Below, piece by piece: positions 669 through 7,332 of a stretch of 7,332 bases of DNA. Position numbers and translations under genes: made by a program. Source of the DNA: a virus. Taxonomy: Duplodnaviria; Heunggongvirae; Uroviricota; Caudoviricetes. The DNA is taken from the IMG/VR virus record IMGVR_UViG_2695420564_000011; one strand, given 5' to 3'. Every line of letters starts with the position of its first letter. Position 1 is the first letter of the stretch. The notes under the pieces are model-generated. The model ran no database searches. It saw nothing but the letters and a program-made list of their open reading frames with translations, and was not told where the DNA came from.

Positions 669-690
669 AGCCACCCGAAGGTGGCTTTTC
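669..690 (+). terminator. Intrinsic terminator downstream of the repressor gene
   Basis: GCCACC (670-675) pairs with GGTGGC (680-685) around a CGAA loop, followed by TTTTC. Lies 22 nt after the repressor stop codon. Confidence 0.6.
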
Positions 691-703
691 ATTACCCATT
701 AAA

Positions 704-742: not shown

Positions 743-756
743 CTTCATTTTATCTT
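728..756 (+). promoter_or_regulatory. Candidate sigma70 promoter (pL-like) driving the rightward accessory operon
   Basis: -35 TTGCAT (728-733), 17-bp spacer, -10 TATCTT (751-756). The -35 overlaps operator-like site 2. No experimental support; the -10 matches consensus at 4 of 6 positions. Confidence 0.35.
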
Positions 757-1168
757 TCTTTCCAGACAAACAAACAAGGTACTAACAAAATTTGGTTGTA
801 ACACGGCGTATGGCACATGCGTCGTTAGCGGTCTGGGGACGTTAAAGGGGACAATCCACTCCTTGCTCGGGCAAACAAACCAGGTAGCCGGAATGTGCAA
901 GTCAATGATGATGCTGATAAGACGCCTAACCAGCGTCGCGATTCGGTTTGACGCCTGGGAAGAGACCAGGGTGCAACGATGAGGGCATTTATGGAACCGC
1001 GACAAAGTGTGGTGCCGTAACTGGCTAAGTGCTCTCAGCGTTGTGGTAATCCGCGAAATGGCGCGGCGGTAAGTATGGCGGGGTTATTCCTTCCCCGTTG
1101 AGGACACCGGGTTGTCAGGTTGACCATACGCTTAAGTGACAAGCCCACCACAACAGCCACTGCTTTGG

Positions 1169-1213
1169 CGGTACCAGTTTGTACACTTGCTTCCGGCTGG
1201 TACCGCTCTTTTT
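1169..1213 (+). terminator. Terminator-like hairpin inside the leader (CGGTACCAG ... CTGGTACCG followed by CTCTTTTT)
   Basis: 9-bp perfect stem (1169-1177 / 1197-1205) with a 19-nt loop, followed by a T-rich tract at 1206-1213. The large loop is atypical for a strong intrinsic terminator, so this may be an attenuator or pause site. Confidence 0.4.
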
Positions 1214-1302
1214 ACAAAACAGAGAAGAGCATCACCGGACGACGGGCTCATAACCCAATCCACCCGGGCGGCTGCCACCGCAGGTGCTCTTCTCTGTTTT
1301 GT
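1214..1302. repeat. 18-bp perfect inverted repeat (ACAAAACAGAGAAGAGCA at 1214-1231; reverse complement TGCTCTTCTCTGTTTTGT at 1285-1302) flanking a 53-bp spacer
   Basis: Read directly from the sequence; arms are exact reverse complements. Located about 50 nt upstream of the yfdP-like start codon. Would form a long RNA hairpin or a DNA cruciform/binding site. Confidence 0.9.
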
Positions 1303-1350
1303 GGAGAAACCAACCGACCTTGCAGGGTCGATATGATGAGGAGCAGCAAA

Positions 1351-2730: not shown

Positions 2731-3267
2731 ATGTCATTTATTAAAACTTTTTCCGGGAAGCATTTTTATTATGACAAGATAAATAAAGACGACATCGTTA
2801 TTAACGATATCGCGGTTTCCCTTTCAAATATCTGTCGCTTTGCAGGACATCTTTCACACTTCTACAGCGTCGCCCAACATGCGGTGCTTTGCAGCCAGCT
2901 GGTACCGCAGGAATTTGCTTTTGAAGCGTTAATGCATGATGCAACAGAAGCATATTGCCAGGACATCCCCGCACCACTGAAACGCCTTCTTCCTGACTAT
3001 AAACGGATGGAAGAAAAAATAGACGCCGTAATCCGTGAGAAATACGGGTTACCTCCTGTTATGAGCACGCCAGTGAAATATGCCGATCTCATTATGCTGG
3101 CAACCGAACGCCGCGATCTCGGGCTTGATGATGGTTCTTTCTGGCCTGTACTGGAAGGTATCCCGGCGACAGAGATGTTCAAAGTTATTCCACTGTCACC
3201 AGGCCATGCCTACGGGATGTTTATGGAACGTTTTAACGAGTTATCGGGGTTACGCAAATGCGCATGA
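2731..3267 (+). CDS. yfdR: YfdR-like HD-domain phosphohydrolase (5'-deoxynucleotidase family), 178 aa
   Basis: ATG at 2731 with GGAGA RBS (2721-2725) at 5-nt spacing; the track's upstream GTG start at 2704 is less likely. HD signature present (H..H ... LMHDATEAY). MSFIKTFSGKHFYYDKI N-terminus and 178-aa length match my recollection of CPS-53 YfdR. Confidence 0.85.
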   Translation: MSFIKTFSGKHFYYDKINKDDIVINDIAVSLSNICRFAGHLSHFYSVAQHAVLCSQLVPQEFAFEALMHDATEAYCQDIPAPLKRLLPDYKRMEEKIDAVIREKYGLPPVMSTPVKYADLIMLATERRDLGLDDGSFWPVLEGIPATEMFKVIPLSPGHAYGMFMERFNELSGLRKCA

Positions 3268-3845
3268 ATGTTTTCGAAATGGAAGGGTTTCTTCGCGGGA
3301 AATGTGTACCGCGAGATCTGAAAGTGAACGAAACAAACGCTGAGTACCTAGTGCGTAAATTTGCTGAAGCTGAGGCCAAGTGCGCGGCGCTGGCTGAACG
3401 TATCGAAGAGTTACAGACAAAACCTACGCCAGATTCGTTTGGCATCATCGGTGAAAATATTCGAACACAGGATAATCGAATAACGTCAGACCCTATGTTT
3501 TGTGTGTATCAAAAGCGCGAAATTGTTGTTGATGCTGATTATGACTATGACCGGATTGTCTGGGTTGATGAAGATGGCAATGAAGCCAATAAACTCCAAA
3601 GTCGTCGTCTCGAACCACTTCATGAAAACTTTCGGGAACCACCAGAAAAATGGCGGCGCGTTGCTGTGAAAGATATTGATGAATTCGTTACCTGCTGTTT
3701 CACCGAACAGGGTTGTAAAGACTACCTGGCAGCCAATGGTCACAATCTTCGCTTGCCATTTATATATGTAAAAAGCGGTTTCAGGAACGCTGAATATATC
3801 GGCATAAGAACCTGGCTTGCTGGCATTCGCATCAAAGGAGAGTGA
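3258..3845 (+). CDS. YfdS-like prophage protein, 195 aa (longer than the 120-aa K-12 YfdS as I remember it)
   Basis: Start ATG at 3258 overlaps the yfdR 3' end; alternative ATG at 3264 overlaps the yfdR stop as ATGA, suggesting translational coupling. Stop TGA at 3843-3845. N-terminal ~75 aa look coiled-coil-like (AEAEAKCAALAERIEELQ). Confidence 0.65.
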   Translation: MRMNVFEMEGFLRGKCVPRDLKVNETNAEYLVRKFAEAEAKCAALAERIEELQTKPTPDSFGIIGENIRTQDNRITSDPMFCVYQKREIVVDADYDYDRIVWVDEDGNEANKLQSRRLEPLHENFREPPEKWRRVAVKDIDEFVTCCFTEQGCKDYLAANGHNLRLPFIYVKSGFRNAEYIGIRTWLAGIRIKGE

Positions 3846-4718: not shown

Positions 4719-4961
4719 ATGTTCGCTCTGATTCAACGTGGTCAGATATACACGGACAGAGCCGGATACCCTGTGGTGATTACTCGCAGTACTCAGCACT
4801 CAGTGTTCTTTCGACGCATGGACGGGCGCTCCGGACGGGTACGCATTGGTGAGTTCAACAACCTGTTCGAACATATTGACCAACAGGAGTACCGCAAAAT
4901 TCTGGCGGGCACTGAGCAGGAAATGCGCCTGAAAAAATTACGCGCAATGCAACGGAGGTGA
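4719..4961 (+). CDS. Small prophage protein, 80 aa, unknown function (possibly DUF4222-like; family assignment uncertain)
   Basis: ATG at 4719 is 5 nt after the micropeptide stop. Basic C-terminus (EQEMRLKKLRAMQRR). Stop TGA at 4959-4961. Confidence 0.65.
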   Translation: MFALIQRGQIYTDRAGYPVVITRSTQHSVFFRRMDGRSGRVRIGEFNNLFEHIDQQEYRKILAGTEQEMRLKKLRAMQRR

Positions 4962-5117: not shown

Positions 5118-5236
5118 ATGCAGACAATCATCTATCAGATAACCCCCAGCAAATGGTGTACGGAGAGAGTCCTTATTGCATCAACAGGGCTAAAGCCCGG
5201 CACCATCGAGCGGGCCAGAAGAAAGTCATGGATGCA
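5118..5236 (+). CDS. N-terminal fragment (39 codons) of an excisionase/AlpA-like DNA-binding protein, truncated at the junction at 5237
   Basis: ATG at 5118 with GAGG RBS (5109-5112). Sequence MQTIIYQITPSKWCTERVLIASTGLKPGTIERARRKSWM resembles the W...T..ARR pattern of phage Xis-like winged-helix proteins. The reading frame then runs into antisense groEL sequence, which is not meaningful. Confidence 0.35.
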
Positions 5237-5237
5237 N

Positions 5238-6399
<1,162 letters not shown>

Positions 6400-6407
6400 N
6401 NGNNNNN

Positions 6408-6437
6408 ATAGCCGGTACCGGAAATGGTAATTTTCAT
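6408..6437 (-). pseudogene. ugd: First 10 codons of ugd (UDP-glucose 6-dehydrogenase; MKITISGTGY), joined through an N-block to the groEL fragment
   Basis: Reverse complement of 6408-6437 is ATGAAAATTACCATTTCCGGTACCGGCTAT, matching the Ugd N-terminus MKITISGTGYVGLSNG as I recall it. Expected position immediately downstream of gnd. Confidence 0.6.
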
Positions 6438-6510
6438 TTCATGCTCTCAGAATTAACTTAGCTGTGAATCATGATGTTTTAGCATCCTGATAGAAGTTAA
6501 AATTTTTAGC

Positions 6511-6538
6511 GCTACGCTGATCCCAGCATCAGCGTAGC
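6511..6538. repeat. 11-bp perfect inverted repeat (GCTACGCTGAT / ATCAGCGTAGC) with 6-nt loop in the gnd-ugd intergenic region
   Basis: Read directly from sequence. No T-run follows on either strand, so it is not a canonical terminator; it could be a regulator binding site or RNA stem in the ugd promoter/leader region. Confidence 0.8.
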
Positions 6539-6624
6539 AACAAAATCAGACTTTACTTATAAGTATAGCTGATATTTATTAAGTTAATATTAAGCAATGA
6601 AATTTAATCTATAGGATTATTGGC

Positions 6625-6655
6625 AAAAAAAACCCGGCAATATATGCCGGGCCTC
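6625..6655 (-). terminator. Intrinsic terminator of gnd
   Basis: On the minus strand: GAGG-CCCGGCA-TATAT-TGCCGGG followed by eight T (plus-strand A-run 6625-6632). Lies about 24 nt downstream of the gnd stop codon. Confidence 0.85.
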
Positions 6656-6678
6656 AATTTATTGCTGATTAAATTAGA

Positions 6679-7332
6679 TTAATCCAGCCATTCAGTATGG
6701 AACACACCTTCTTTATCAATGCGCTTATAAGTATGCGCACCGAAATAGTCACGCTGAGCCTGGATCAGGTTCGCAGGCAGCACCGCGGCACGGTAGCTAT
6801 CGTAATAAGCAACCGCCGCAGAGAAGGTTGGAACTGGGATACCGTTTTGCACTGCATAAGCGACGACATCACGCAGTGCCTGCTGGTAGTCATCGGCGAT
6901 TTTCTTGAAATACGGAGCTAACAGCAGGTTAGCGATTTTTGGATTTTCGGCATAGGCATCGGTGATTTTCTGCAGGAACTGCGCACGGATGATGCAGCCA
7001 GCACGGAAAATCTTCGCGATTTCACCGTAGTTCAGATCCCAGTTGTATTCTTCAGACGCAGCACGCAGCTGAGAGAAGCCCTGAGCGTAAGAAACGATTT
7101 TTCCCAGATACAGCGCACGACGAACTTTCTCGATAAACTCAGCCTTATCGCCTGCTGGCTGCGCTTGCGGACCAGAAAGTACTTTAGATGCGGCAACACG
7201 CTGATCTTTCAGAGAAGAGATATAACGTGCAAACACAGACTCGGTAATCAGCGACAGCGGTTCGCCGAGATCCAGCGCACTCTGACTGGTCCATTTACCG
7301 GTGCCTTTATTAGCCGCTTCATCCAGGATCAC
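6679..7332 (-). CDS. gnd: 6-phosphogluconate dehydrogenase (decarboxylating), C-terminal 217 aa; 5' part lies beyond the window
   Basis: Translation ...[51 protein letters not shown] ... [24 protein letters not shown] matches the enterobacterial Gnd C-terminal domain. Stop TAA at 6679-6681 on the minus strand; ORF open to the window edge. Confidence 0.95.

Follow-up and report, generated by a model that had tools for sequence, protein, structure and literature searches.

The small RNA (sRNA) DicF was reportedly described by Faubladier et al. in 1990. The put RNA of phage HK022 acts in cis on RNA polymerase (RNAP), at the beta' zinc-binding domain, and suppresses termination without protein factors, and the C4 and P4 CI RNAs are RNase P-processed antisense immunity RNAs that act on their own operon. 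In this study, we compared these systems with one locus in a 7,332-nt stretch of viral DNA (IMG/VR record IMGVR_UViG_2695420564_000011; hereafter the window), namely positions 757-1350, the leader between a putative early-left promoter (PL) and the first early gene, yfdP. Judged by sequence and gene order, this interval opens the early-left operon of a lambdoid prophage that lacks N and is of the SfV/mEp460/cdtI/e14/ST64B kind. The main comparator was DicF, which is encoded in the dicBF operon of the Qin prophage and catalogued as Rfam RF00039 (PMC5069750, PMC10448788). The 190-nt DicF species has a 5' end generated by RNase III (PMC10448788), the 53-nt form is made by RNase E (PMC10448788, PMC5069750), and the 3' end arises by termination or, on readthrough transcripts, by an RNase III cut ~19 nt further on that yields a 72-nt form (PMC5069750).

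BLAST searches against E. coli genomes and phages showed that the parts of the interval differ in distribution. Positions 790-1046 matched P1 and P7, where the homologous DNA lies between tRNA-Ile and ban, and the Uetakeviruses phiV10 and TL-2011b, where it lies just upstream of tRNA-Arg; positions 1040-1162 matched the Qin prophage in thousands of genomes; and positions 1165-1340 matched e14 (annotated there as 'ymfH'), SfV, SfII and ST64B. On this comparison, the interval is a mosaic of four predicted RNA modules, here called A, B, the DicF-position hairpin and C (Table 1), with a connector between A and B whose slot is filled by other inserts in the alignments with other phages. The fold of the whole interval gave z = -3.9 in sense and z = -3.7 in antisense, and this figure alone therefore indicates no strand. 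The convincing structural signal came from the comparative analysis and from individual elements, of which the hairpins at 1160-1215 (z = -4.1) and 1205-1345 (z = -6.8) folded strongly on their own. An earlier note on this DNA, which had not seen the DicF relationship, the mosaic modules or the 5' third as a widespread new RNA family, could match the leader to no named RNA family. None emerged from Rfam covariance-model searches either: the leader modules stayed unmatched when the window was searched in full (E <= 1) or in sub-windows (E <= 10), as they did in more than 30 related loci screened at gathering thresholds, and the only matches were DicF, tRNA, C4, isrK and sok, all outside these modules.

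The relationship to DicF is carried by module B. Rfam called the Qin DicF at positions 3133-3184 of the Qin locus L006 (76.7 bits), and window positions 1040-1162 were 93% identical to L006 3001-3123, a stretch of 123 nt that stops 10 nt short of dicF. A 190-nt RNA ending at the DicF terminator would begin at about L006 3000, the start of the homology with the window. Module B folded as a cloverleaf-like four-way junction in both the window and Qin, and the fold was backed by a 13-sequence alignment including P1, in which five pairs showed compensatory change. It was also 77% identical to the annotated 'dicF-like region' of P1, the ban operon leader, which consists of module B and then a plain terminator. 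By these identities, module B is a homolog of the 5' domain of the Qin 190-nt DicF precursor and of the P1 ban operon leader.

The slot of module B is occupied differently elsewhere. True tRNAs fill the equivalent slot in related phages; it is the slot of tRNA-Arg(UCU) in Uetakeviruses and a Klebsiella phage (window 1040-1047 versus L005 2242-2318), and the homology with the tRNA locus reaches the tRNA acceptor stem (GUGG). Module B might be derived from a tRNA, though ARAGORN detected none in the window and the modules went unmatched by the Rfam tRNA model. The prophages e14, ST64B and SfII carry an alternative module B' with the same GUUGUGGUG...CACCACAAC closing stem and five internal hairpins (L127 2355-2495, L129 1795-1925 and L002 ~3340-3470, respectively), and a module B'-related start (GUGGUGAAUGCGGCU.AGCGCACGCGG) lies downstream of DicF in Qin. 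Qin-type contigs fetched via module B also contained sok antitoxin RNAs of the hok/sok type (Rfam 104-120 bits; L177 9206-9381 and L178 9731-9880), which are unrelated.

Downstream of module B, the window carries an inverted repeat (1168-1177/1197-1206, 100% complementary) followed by TCTTTTT, which agrees with the earlier description of a structured leader with one terminator-like hairpin. The consensus terminator scanner missed this hairpin only because of its 19-nt loop. The window hairpin (UUUGGCGGUACCAG...CUGGUACCGCUCUUUUU) has the DicF scaffold UUUGGCGG...CCGCCCUUUUU, with CCGC(C/U)CUUUUU as its 3' part; DicF itself reads UUUGGCGGUAUCAG...CUGCCGCCCUUUUU, and the two thus share a scaffold and differ in the loop. 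The position is also that of DicF, in the repressor-controlled early-left operon of a lambdoid prophage and directly downstream of the conserved precursor domain, a structured region of ~115-135 nt. As in DicF, the hairpin is predicted to double as an intrinsic terminator, and we take it to be both the sRNA body and the terminator. An independent structured sRNA, one of the options in the earlier note, is favoured by this combination of predicted scaffold and position.

The DicF slot proved to vary among phages. Among loci collected via a conserved module B word, at least 12 hairpin alleles occupied the DicF position between conserved flanks, and Rfam called DicF in only 2 of 13 representative alleles. 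On these sequences, the slot is therefore a hypervariable, multi-allelic cassette, of which the window carries a non-canonical allele. The cassette loops are rich in U and CU, with motifs such as CUUCC, UCCUU and CUCCC. A 6+6-nt complementarity between the hairpin loop and the module A 19-mer was rejected, being no better than that of 12% of shuffled loops and missing from other alleles.

Module C starts directly after the T-run, where its long stem closes a three-way junction. It was conserved in e14, SfII, SfV and ST64B, while the first gene behind it varied (yfdP, xisE and several others), and it showed a few compensatory changes (G-C to A-U in ST64B, A-U to C-G in L187). In Qin, where RNase III sites flank the unit, a long duplex also lies immediately downstream, before the next ORF (open reading frame): an analogous long-range pairing (GAAUUUUGUGAUG...CAUCACAAAAUUC) begins ~10 nt past the DicF T-run, at the mapped RNase III end of the 72-nt form (PMC5069750). 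Because of this analogy and the length of its duplex, module C is a good candidate for an RNase III site on readthrough transcripts; its 25-nt arms, 88% complementary, would form the extended near-perfect duplex (~20 bp or more) expected at such a processing point. The suggestion of an RNase III-processed leader, also made in the earlier note, is thus supported by homology, since module B plus the hairpin would correspond to the 190-nt DicF species and module C lies where RNase III makes the 72-nt form. Lambda has comparable RNase III sites, sib and the N-leader hairpin, in that a long near-perfect hairpin stands in the PL transcript just upstream of the first ORF, a plausible substrate for separating leader from mRNA or for tuning translation or stability. 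They have no sequence relationship to module C, however, which closes a three-way junction, abuts an sRNA terminator and is a candidate for cleavage.

Module A, at the 5' end of the leader, matched no family of Rfam 15 in the window or in 13 diverse loci. Homologs were collected by scanning viral contigs, and a single genome from each species, for sequence patterns. The results showed at least 161 distinct enterobacterial phage or prophage loci, with one copy per phage, in prophages of E. coli, Citrobacter, Klebsiella, Kosakonia, Phytobacter, Kluyvera, Buttiauxella, Pseudescherichia, Superficieibacter, Enterobacter and Erwinia and in phages P1, phiV10, SPN1S, PAT1, mEp390 and a Klebsiella phage. 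Using an alignment of 26 sequences (A3), we proposed a structure of four helices (H1, P2, H5 and P5) plus a pseudoknot, with 25 pairs. On this structure 95.5% of cells were paired, versus 27-47% when the partners were slid by 1-3 columns, 12 of the 25 pairs had changed on both sides, and the covariation score was 0.348 versus 0.145 ± 0.012 in shuffles. Pseudoknot pair 136/156 was C-G in 21 sequences and A-U in 5, the latter from at least three otherwise divergent lineages. Mutual information (94 distinct sequences) and an independent RNAalifold analysis (94-100 sequences) recovered H1, P2 and P5, together with a distal extension of P2 with G-C, C-G and U-A variants. An alternative RNAalifold hairpin in place of H5 and the pseudoknot was contradicted by the five A/U-variant sequences and by H5 covariation, and a pairing of CCGGAAU with GAUUCGG was contradicted by the variants GAUACGG and GAUCAGG.

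The 19-mer GGUAGCCGGAAUGUGCAAG was exact in 110 of 118 loci fetched via a different anchor. A covariance model built from A3 (R1) gave exactly one match in the whole mEp460 genome, one in the closest complete-genome relative (L003) and one in each of 100 further loci; it gave no match in HK022 (E <= 10), Qin, e14, ST64B or SfII. Where the window has module A, e14 and ST64B carry a different conserved first leader element (ACAGGCAGGACGCCCACGAAGUAGCC...GAUGAUUCG; L127 ~1575-1640 and L129 ~1450-1515), to which the module A model gave no match. Compensatory changes in predicted stems, which the earlier note had proposed to look for among homologs, were seen in modules A, B and C. The leader unit resembles ROOL and GOLLD, which are large, ornate, phage-borne noncoding RNAs often found beside tRNA genes, but the two differ in sequence and neither model matched (Rfam negative), its hosts are Enterobacterales rather than Firmicutes and others, and it is smaller and ends in an sRNA-like terminator. 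Module A appears to be a new RNA family, widespread, uncatalogued, pseudoknotted and tied to DicF-type terminators.

This tie was seen in the 161 distinct module A loci with sufficient flanking sequence. A sense-strand hairpin followed by a T-run lay downstream in 156 of them, versus 35 in the antisense control, and the median distance from the H1 start to the end of this element was 412 nt (interquartile range 404-443). In 141 of 158 loci it preceded the first ORF of at least 70 aa. Of the downstream hairpins, 133 have a GGCGG-type 5' arm as in the DicF scaffold, and the loops are CU-rich. Their commonest alleles read (U)UUGGCGG...CCGCCCUUUUUACA, the window carries the commonest allele found downstream of module A, and Kosakonia alleles (UUUCCCGUGAGGG) resemble DicF's own ACUCCGUGACUG. 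What lies between module A and the hairpin varied. A same-strand tRNA adjoined module A in 35/161 loci, in 33 of them a tRNA-Arg(UCU) between module A and the hairpin; the others were one tRNA-Ile downstream and the P1 tRNA just upstream of module A. Module B followed module A in 31/161 loci, and prophages of Kosakonia and Phytobacter repeated the same arrangement ahead of yfdP-yfdQ homologs. Read from these sequences, the recurring unit is a putative early promoter, module A, an interchangeable structured cargo and a DicF-type hairpin-terminator.

CU-rich, anti-Shine-Dalgarno-like motifs (UCCUUG, UCCUUCC, CUUGCUUCC) occurred at the module A P2 apex (846-872), in the module B central loop (1083-1096) and in the terminator loop (1178-1196), and SPN1S-type phages carried the 13-mer UUCCCUUGAUGCU in both the P2 loop and the terminator loop. 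Co-evolution of the two loops within a locus was not evident: the mean longest common substring was 5.6 versus 5.25 ± 0.13 in permuted pairs, a small difference confounded by relatedness.

We propose that the interval is an early noncoding RNA unit in which transcription partly terminates at 1213, the RNA undergoes Qin-like processing to a DicF-type sRNA, and readthrough RNA is cut at module C, with the hairpin acting as both sRNA gene and attenuator; we put the probability of this reading at about 0.55. It is based on the homology, conservation and covariation, the missing coding signal and the module A-terminator linkage observed in this analysis. Once the repressor is lost, transcription would begin near 765, and polymerase would pass module A, the connector, module B and the hairpin with its U-run. 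Some polymerases would stop at the hairpin, giving a primary RNA of ~450 nt, and this RNA would be trimmed as in Qin, with RNase III cutting at the module B base and RNase E also acting, to a longer species of ~175 nt and a short hairpin sRNA whose CU-rich loop would act in trans on host mRNAs. Readthrough polymerases would transcribe the module C duplex, and RNase III would cut it, parting the RNA unit from the yfdP-yfdQ-yfdR mRNA. The hairpin would then be an sRNA gene and also an attenuator of the early-left operon, limiting readthrough into yfdP, and module A would be its cis-linked partner, with control of termination and readthrough or a scaffold for sRNA biogenesis or stability as the leading candidate roles. 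We infer the transcript ends, the RNase cleavages in this phage, the trans-action of the sRNA and the attenuation.

Several observations speak against this proposal. The 5' single-stranded arm of DicF and its mapped RNase E region are absent from the window hairpin, and the Rfam DicF model RF00039 (gathering threshold 48 bits) matched neither the window at E <= 1 nor positions 1100-1240 at E <= 10. DicF inhibits cell division by base-pairing at the ftsZ translation start; in duplex prediction against this region (-60 to +30), the window RNA scored z = +1.6, in a test of low power, in which canonical DicF (z = -1.2) was not outstanding either. The 19-nt loop may make the hairpin a weak terminator. 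The promoter scanner gave no call at the putative PL, which is a weak promoter-like sequence with a presumed transcription start near 763-766; at other loci, clear TTGACA/TAnnnT promoters or operator palindromes lie directly upstream of module A. In P1, module B and a terminator start the operon while module A comes later, between tRNA-Ile and ban, and no DicF-type hairpin follows it, so the linkage is not universal. The module A loci are related by descent, and the counts therefore overstate the number of independent observations. Compared with DicF, the setting differs, as the window unit directly follows a promoter and module A and precedes yfdP, whereas the Qin unit follows the translated ORFs ydfABC and precedes dicB.

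Of the other explanations, a hidden small protein gene is very improbable, whether the minus-strand ORF of 48 aa (1132-1278), the plus-strand ORF of 66 aa (1136-1336) or an N-like protein translated from an unusual start. PHROG families match both of these ORFs, and ORFs are annotated here in mEp460, SfII, F1055 and e14 (ymfH). However, PHROG matches fall on both strands across the same DNA, which points to annotators' ORF calls and not to real genes, and the annotated ORFs disagree in strand and length (47, 63, 103 and 190 aa). At 181 variable sites in 51 homologs of 84-99% identity, 3-base periodicity was absent for any ORF, and every ORF of the interval was interrupted in ~40% of these close homologs. 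A Pfam search of the interval ORFs gave no match, the Prokaryotic Genome Annotation Pipeline (PGAP) called nothing in the interval, and the substitutions were compensatory within RNA stems. The claim of a ~600-nt leader without a credible ORF before yfdP (~590 nt separate the putative promoter from this gene) therefore held, no conserved coding ORF of the kind that the earlier note had named as refuting it was found in homologs, and the leader was GC-rich as described (0.47-0.57 over 750-1350 versus 0.37-0.43 in the 3' half of cI and the adjoining promoter region). Because strand and length differ between records, several 'hypothetical proteins' called here (K-12 ymfH and PHROGs 3651 and 33599 among them) probably represent RNA that was wrongly annotated as protein genes. 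These calls lie over the module B'-hairpin-module C RNA region (ymfH of e14 at L127 2363-2674; window 1132-1336). Functionless debris from prophage recombination is scarcely tenable. The region is clearly mosaic and the modules differ in distribution among phages, but each module is kept as a unit in distant phages, the module A 19-mer is near-invariant, order and strand relative to the terminator are conserved, and the covariation of base pairs already contradicts this explanation. The earlier preference for an RNA-based device over a missed gene thus receives strong support from covariation and conservation over many phages.

A more substantial alternative, though a doubtful one, is that module A is a protein-independent processive antiterminator that replaces N, as a functional analog and not a homolog of HK022 put; RNAP modified on leaving PL would read past the hairpin-terminator, past Rho-dependent termination in the untranslated leader and past later early-left terminators. 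The absence of an N-like gene, asserted in the earlier note, fits this idea: Pfam matched none of the window's PL-operon ORFs to an N family, and mEp460 has a Q-like late antiterminator, with N not among its annotated genes. The leader has no ungapped boxA with three or fewer mismatches, such as a lambda-type N/nut system would carry, and the boxA-like motif reported earlier (CGCTCTTTTTACAA) turned out to be the 3' arm and T-run of the terminator, which is changed in homologs (GCCCTTTTT, GTCCTTTTT). Specialists have already speculated on put-like RNA in N-less lambdoid phages of the ST64B/LLS type (PMC12315714). Module A, like put a structured RNA close to PL with terminators downstream, lies within ~35-60 nt of repressor-controlled early promoters in several lineages and upstream of the terminator in nearly all loci, its 19-mer and pseudoknot would suit a protein- or RNAP-binding surface, and it is absent in Qin, where translated ORFs precede the cassette. 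On the other side, BLAST of the leader and module A homologs against HK022, with putL and putR located, gave chance matches only, the covariance model was equally silent, and putL stem I and H1 share just a 6+9+4-nt string (ACGGCG..CAUGCGUCG..AGCG). The put RNA is ~70 nt long with two stems and occurs in both the PL and the early-right (PR) operon as putL and putR, whereas module A is ~175 nt long with five helices and a pseudoknot and is single-copy; the PL leader and the PR operon share no same-sense repeat. Module A also stands mid-operon in P1, downstream of a terminator-like element, and heads a small tRNA moron in Uetakeviruses, with no obvious use for processive antitermination. Membership of module A in the put family, the form in which the earlier note had raised an HK022 put-like RNA, is thus rejected, while module A may have a put-like function. 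Unlikely in our judgement is a role of the modules as mere processing or stability punctuation, tRNA-like or duplex, for RNase P, III and E, with neither a trans-acting sRNA nor termination control. Module B is cloverleaf-like and sits in the slot of the tRNA-Arg or tRNA-Ile of related phages, RNase III processing is documented for the Qin homolog (PMC10448788), and duplex prediction gave no target for the hairpin loop. Yet trans action is proven for canonical DicF, which occupies the same slot (PMC5069750), the loop varies among alleles while scaffold and flanks stay constant, which is the pattern of a seed region and not of a structural spacer, the invariant 19-mer and the covarying pseudoknot exceed the needs of a cleavage signal, and ARAGORN and the Rfam tRNA model recognise no module.

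The surroundings of the interval are those of a prophage early region. The window starts inside a cI-like S24 repressor gene (1-648), whose terminator stem lies at 669-686, and yfdP (1351-1713) is followed by yfdQ (DUF2303), yfdR and more early-left genes. Near-identical DNA was found in ~980 complete E. coli genomes and in phages PhiR47_1, mEp460, cdtI, Ayreon and 2H10 and Stx2c, Stx2a and Stx2k phages. In relatives, the neighbours on the opposite side are a cro-like gene, ymfL, an antirepressor and replication genes, and the window is therefore taken as the early-left (PL) arm of an SfV/ST64B/e14-type prophage. A DUF4222 gene lies in the early-left operon at 4719-4961, and L003 has one in its PR operon (2090-2269), so that this small gene family is found on both early arms. 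Further downstream (5226-7332), the phage sequence gives way, at an N near 5236, to a groEL fragment (minus strand, 5226-6437) that contains more Ns, after which comes a gnd fragment (minus strand, 6679-7332); given this unnatural neighbourhood, the record looks chimeric or artificially concatenated.

Early phage operons that start with processed noncoding RNAs are a feature shared with the P1 ban leader and the C4 and P4 CI RNAs. P1 carries both module B, in the leader, and module A, between tRNA-Ile and ban, but in a different order. Nothing comparable to the C4 or P4 CI RNAs was found in the window leader; in this prophage type, Rfam placed a C4 antisense RNA (83.6 bits) beside isrK (67 bits) in the PR-side operon, just upstream of a Rha/antirepressor gene (L003 1870-2058 and L001 370-558, both minus strand). 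Both early arms therefore begin with, or contain, regulatory RNAs.

Table 1. Features of the leader and its flanks, in window coordinates
Feature	Position	Strand	Basis or detail
Intrinsic terminator of cI-like repressor gene	669-692	+	Terminator scan; annotated terminator in SfII
Putative left operators (OL), palindromes	TTGCATATCTCGCAA 704-718; TTGCATAATGCGCAA 728-742	+	Read from sequence
Putative PL	-35 TTGCAT 728-733; -10 TATCTT 751-756	+	Read from sequence
Module A, conserved structured RNA	800-973	+	Covariance model R1, 148 bits
Module A, H1	804-811/817-824	+	Proposed structure
Module A, P2 with distal extension	833-836/880-883	+	Proposed structure
Module A, invariant 19-mer GGUAGCCGGAAUGUGCAAG	883-901	+	Conservation
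Module A, variable hairpin	~902-920	+	
Module A, H5	921-925/933-937	+	Proposed structure
Module A, pseudoknot of H5 loop (CACC) with downstream GGUG	928-931/945-948	+	
Module A, P5	954-958/966-970	+	Proposed structure
Connector	974-1046	+	Long-range helix 974-987/1030-1043 around a variable hairpin; fold of 900-1046 z = -3.4; lightly tested
Module B, cloverleaf-like four-way junction	1040-1154	+	Closing stem 1040-1047/1147-1154; central hairpin loop UCCUUCC
DicF-position cassette	1167-1213	+	Arms GCGGUACCAG / CUGGUACCGC; 19-nt loop UUUGUACACUUGCUUCCGG, then UCUUUUU; z = -4.1
Module C	1214-1302	+	25-nt inverted repeat 1214-1238/1278-1302, 88% complementary; z = -6.8
Pre-yfdP spacer	1303-1350	+	Conserved GGAGAAAC(C/U)AAC; small hairpin 1313-1332; ribosome-binding site GAGGAG 1338-1343; start codon 1351

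Full-text literature searches on ymfH, 'DicF-like' and the conserved strings of module A returned nothing relevant, and the Pas sRNAs of enteropathogenic E. coli (bioRxiv 2026) proved to be unrelated late-region loci. DicF, its processing and the 'dicF-like region' of P1 are already known. A leader carrying a DicF-slot allele that the family model misses, and the multi-allelic nature of this slot within a conserved framework, appear to be new.

These findings bear on how N-less lambdoid phages pass their early terminators, for which the recent literature only speculates on a put-like RNA (PMC12315714). Module A, a strongly supported structured RNA with an invariant core that matches no catalogued family, is a specific candidate element. 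Tentatively, module A and the DicF-type hairpin-terminator may form an unrecognised noncoding RNA unit of ~400 nt in temperate phages of Enterobacterales, in which module A would be a protein-independent termination modulator unrelated to put, and K-12 DicF would be a decayed remnant whose seed loop is one cassette allele. If true, such a unit would explain expression of the early-left operon in N-less lambdoid phages of the SfV, ST64B, e14, mEp460 and LLS types. DicF is among the oldest known bacterial sRNAs and has been studied almost only as its K-12 allele. The swappable seed cassette described here, with at least 12 alleles of which most are invisible to the Rfam model, sits in a framework common to lambdoid phages, P1 and Uetakeviruses, and one scaffold may therefore be used by many prophages to deliver sRNAs that act on different host targets.

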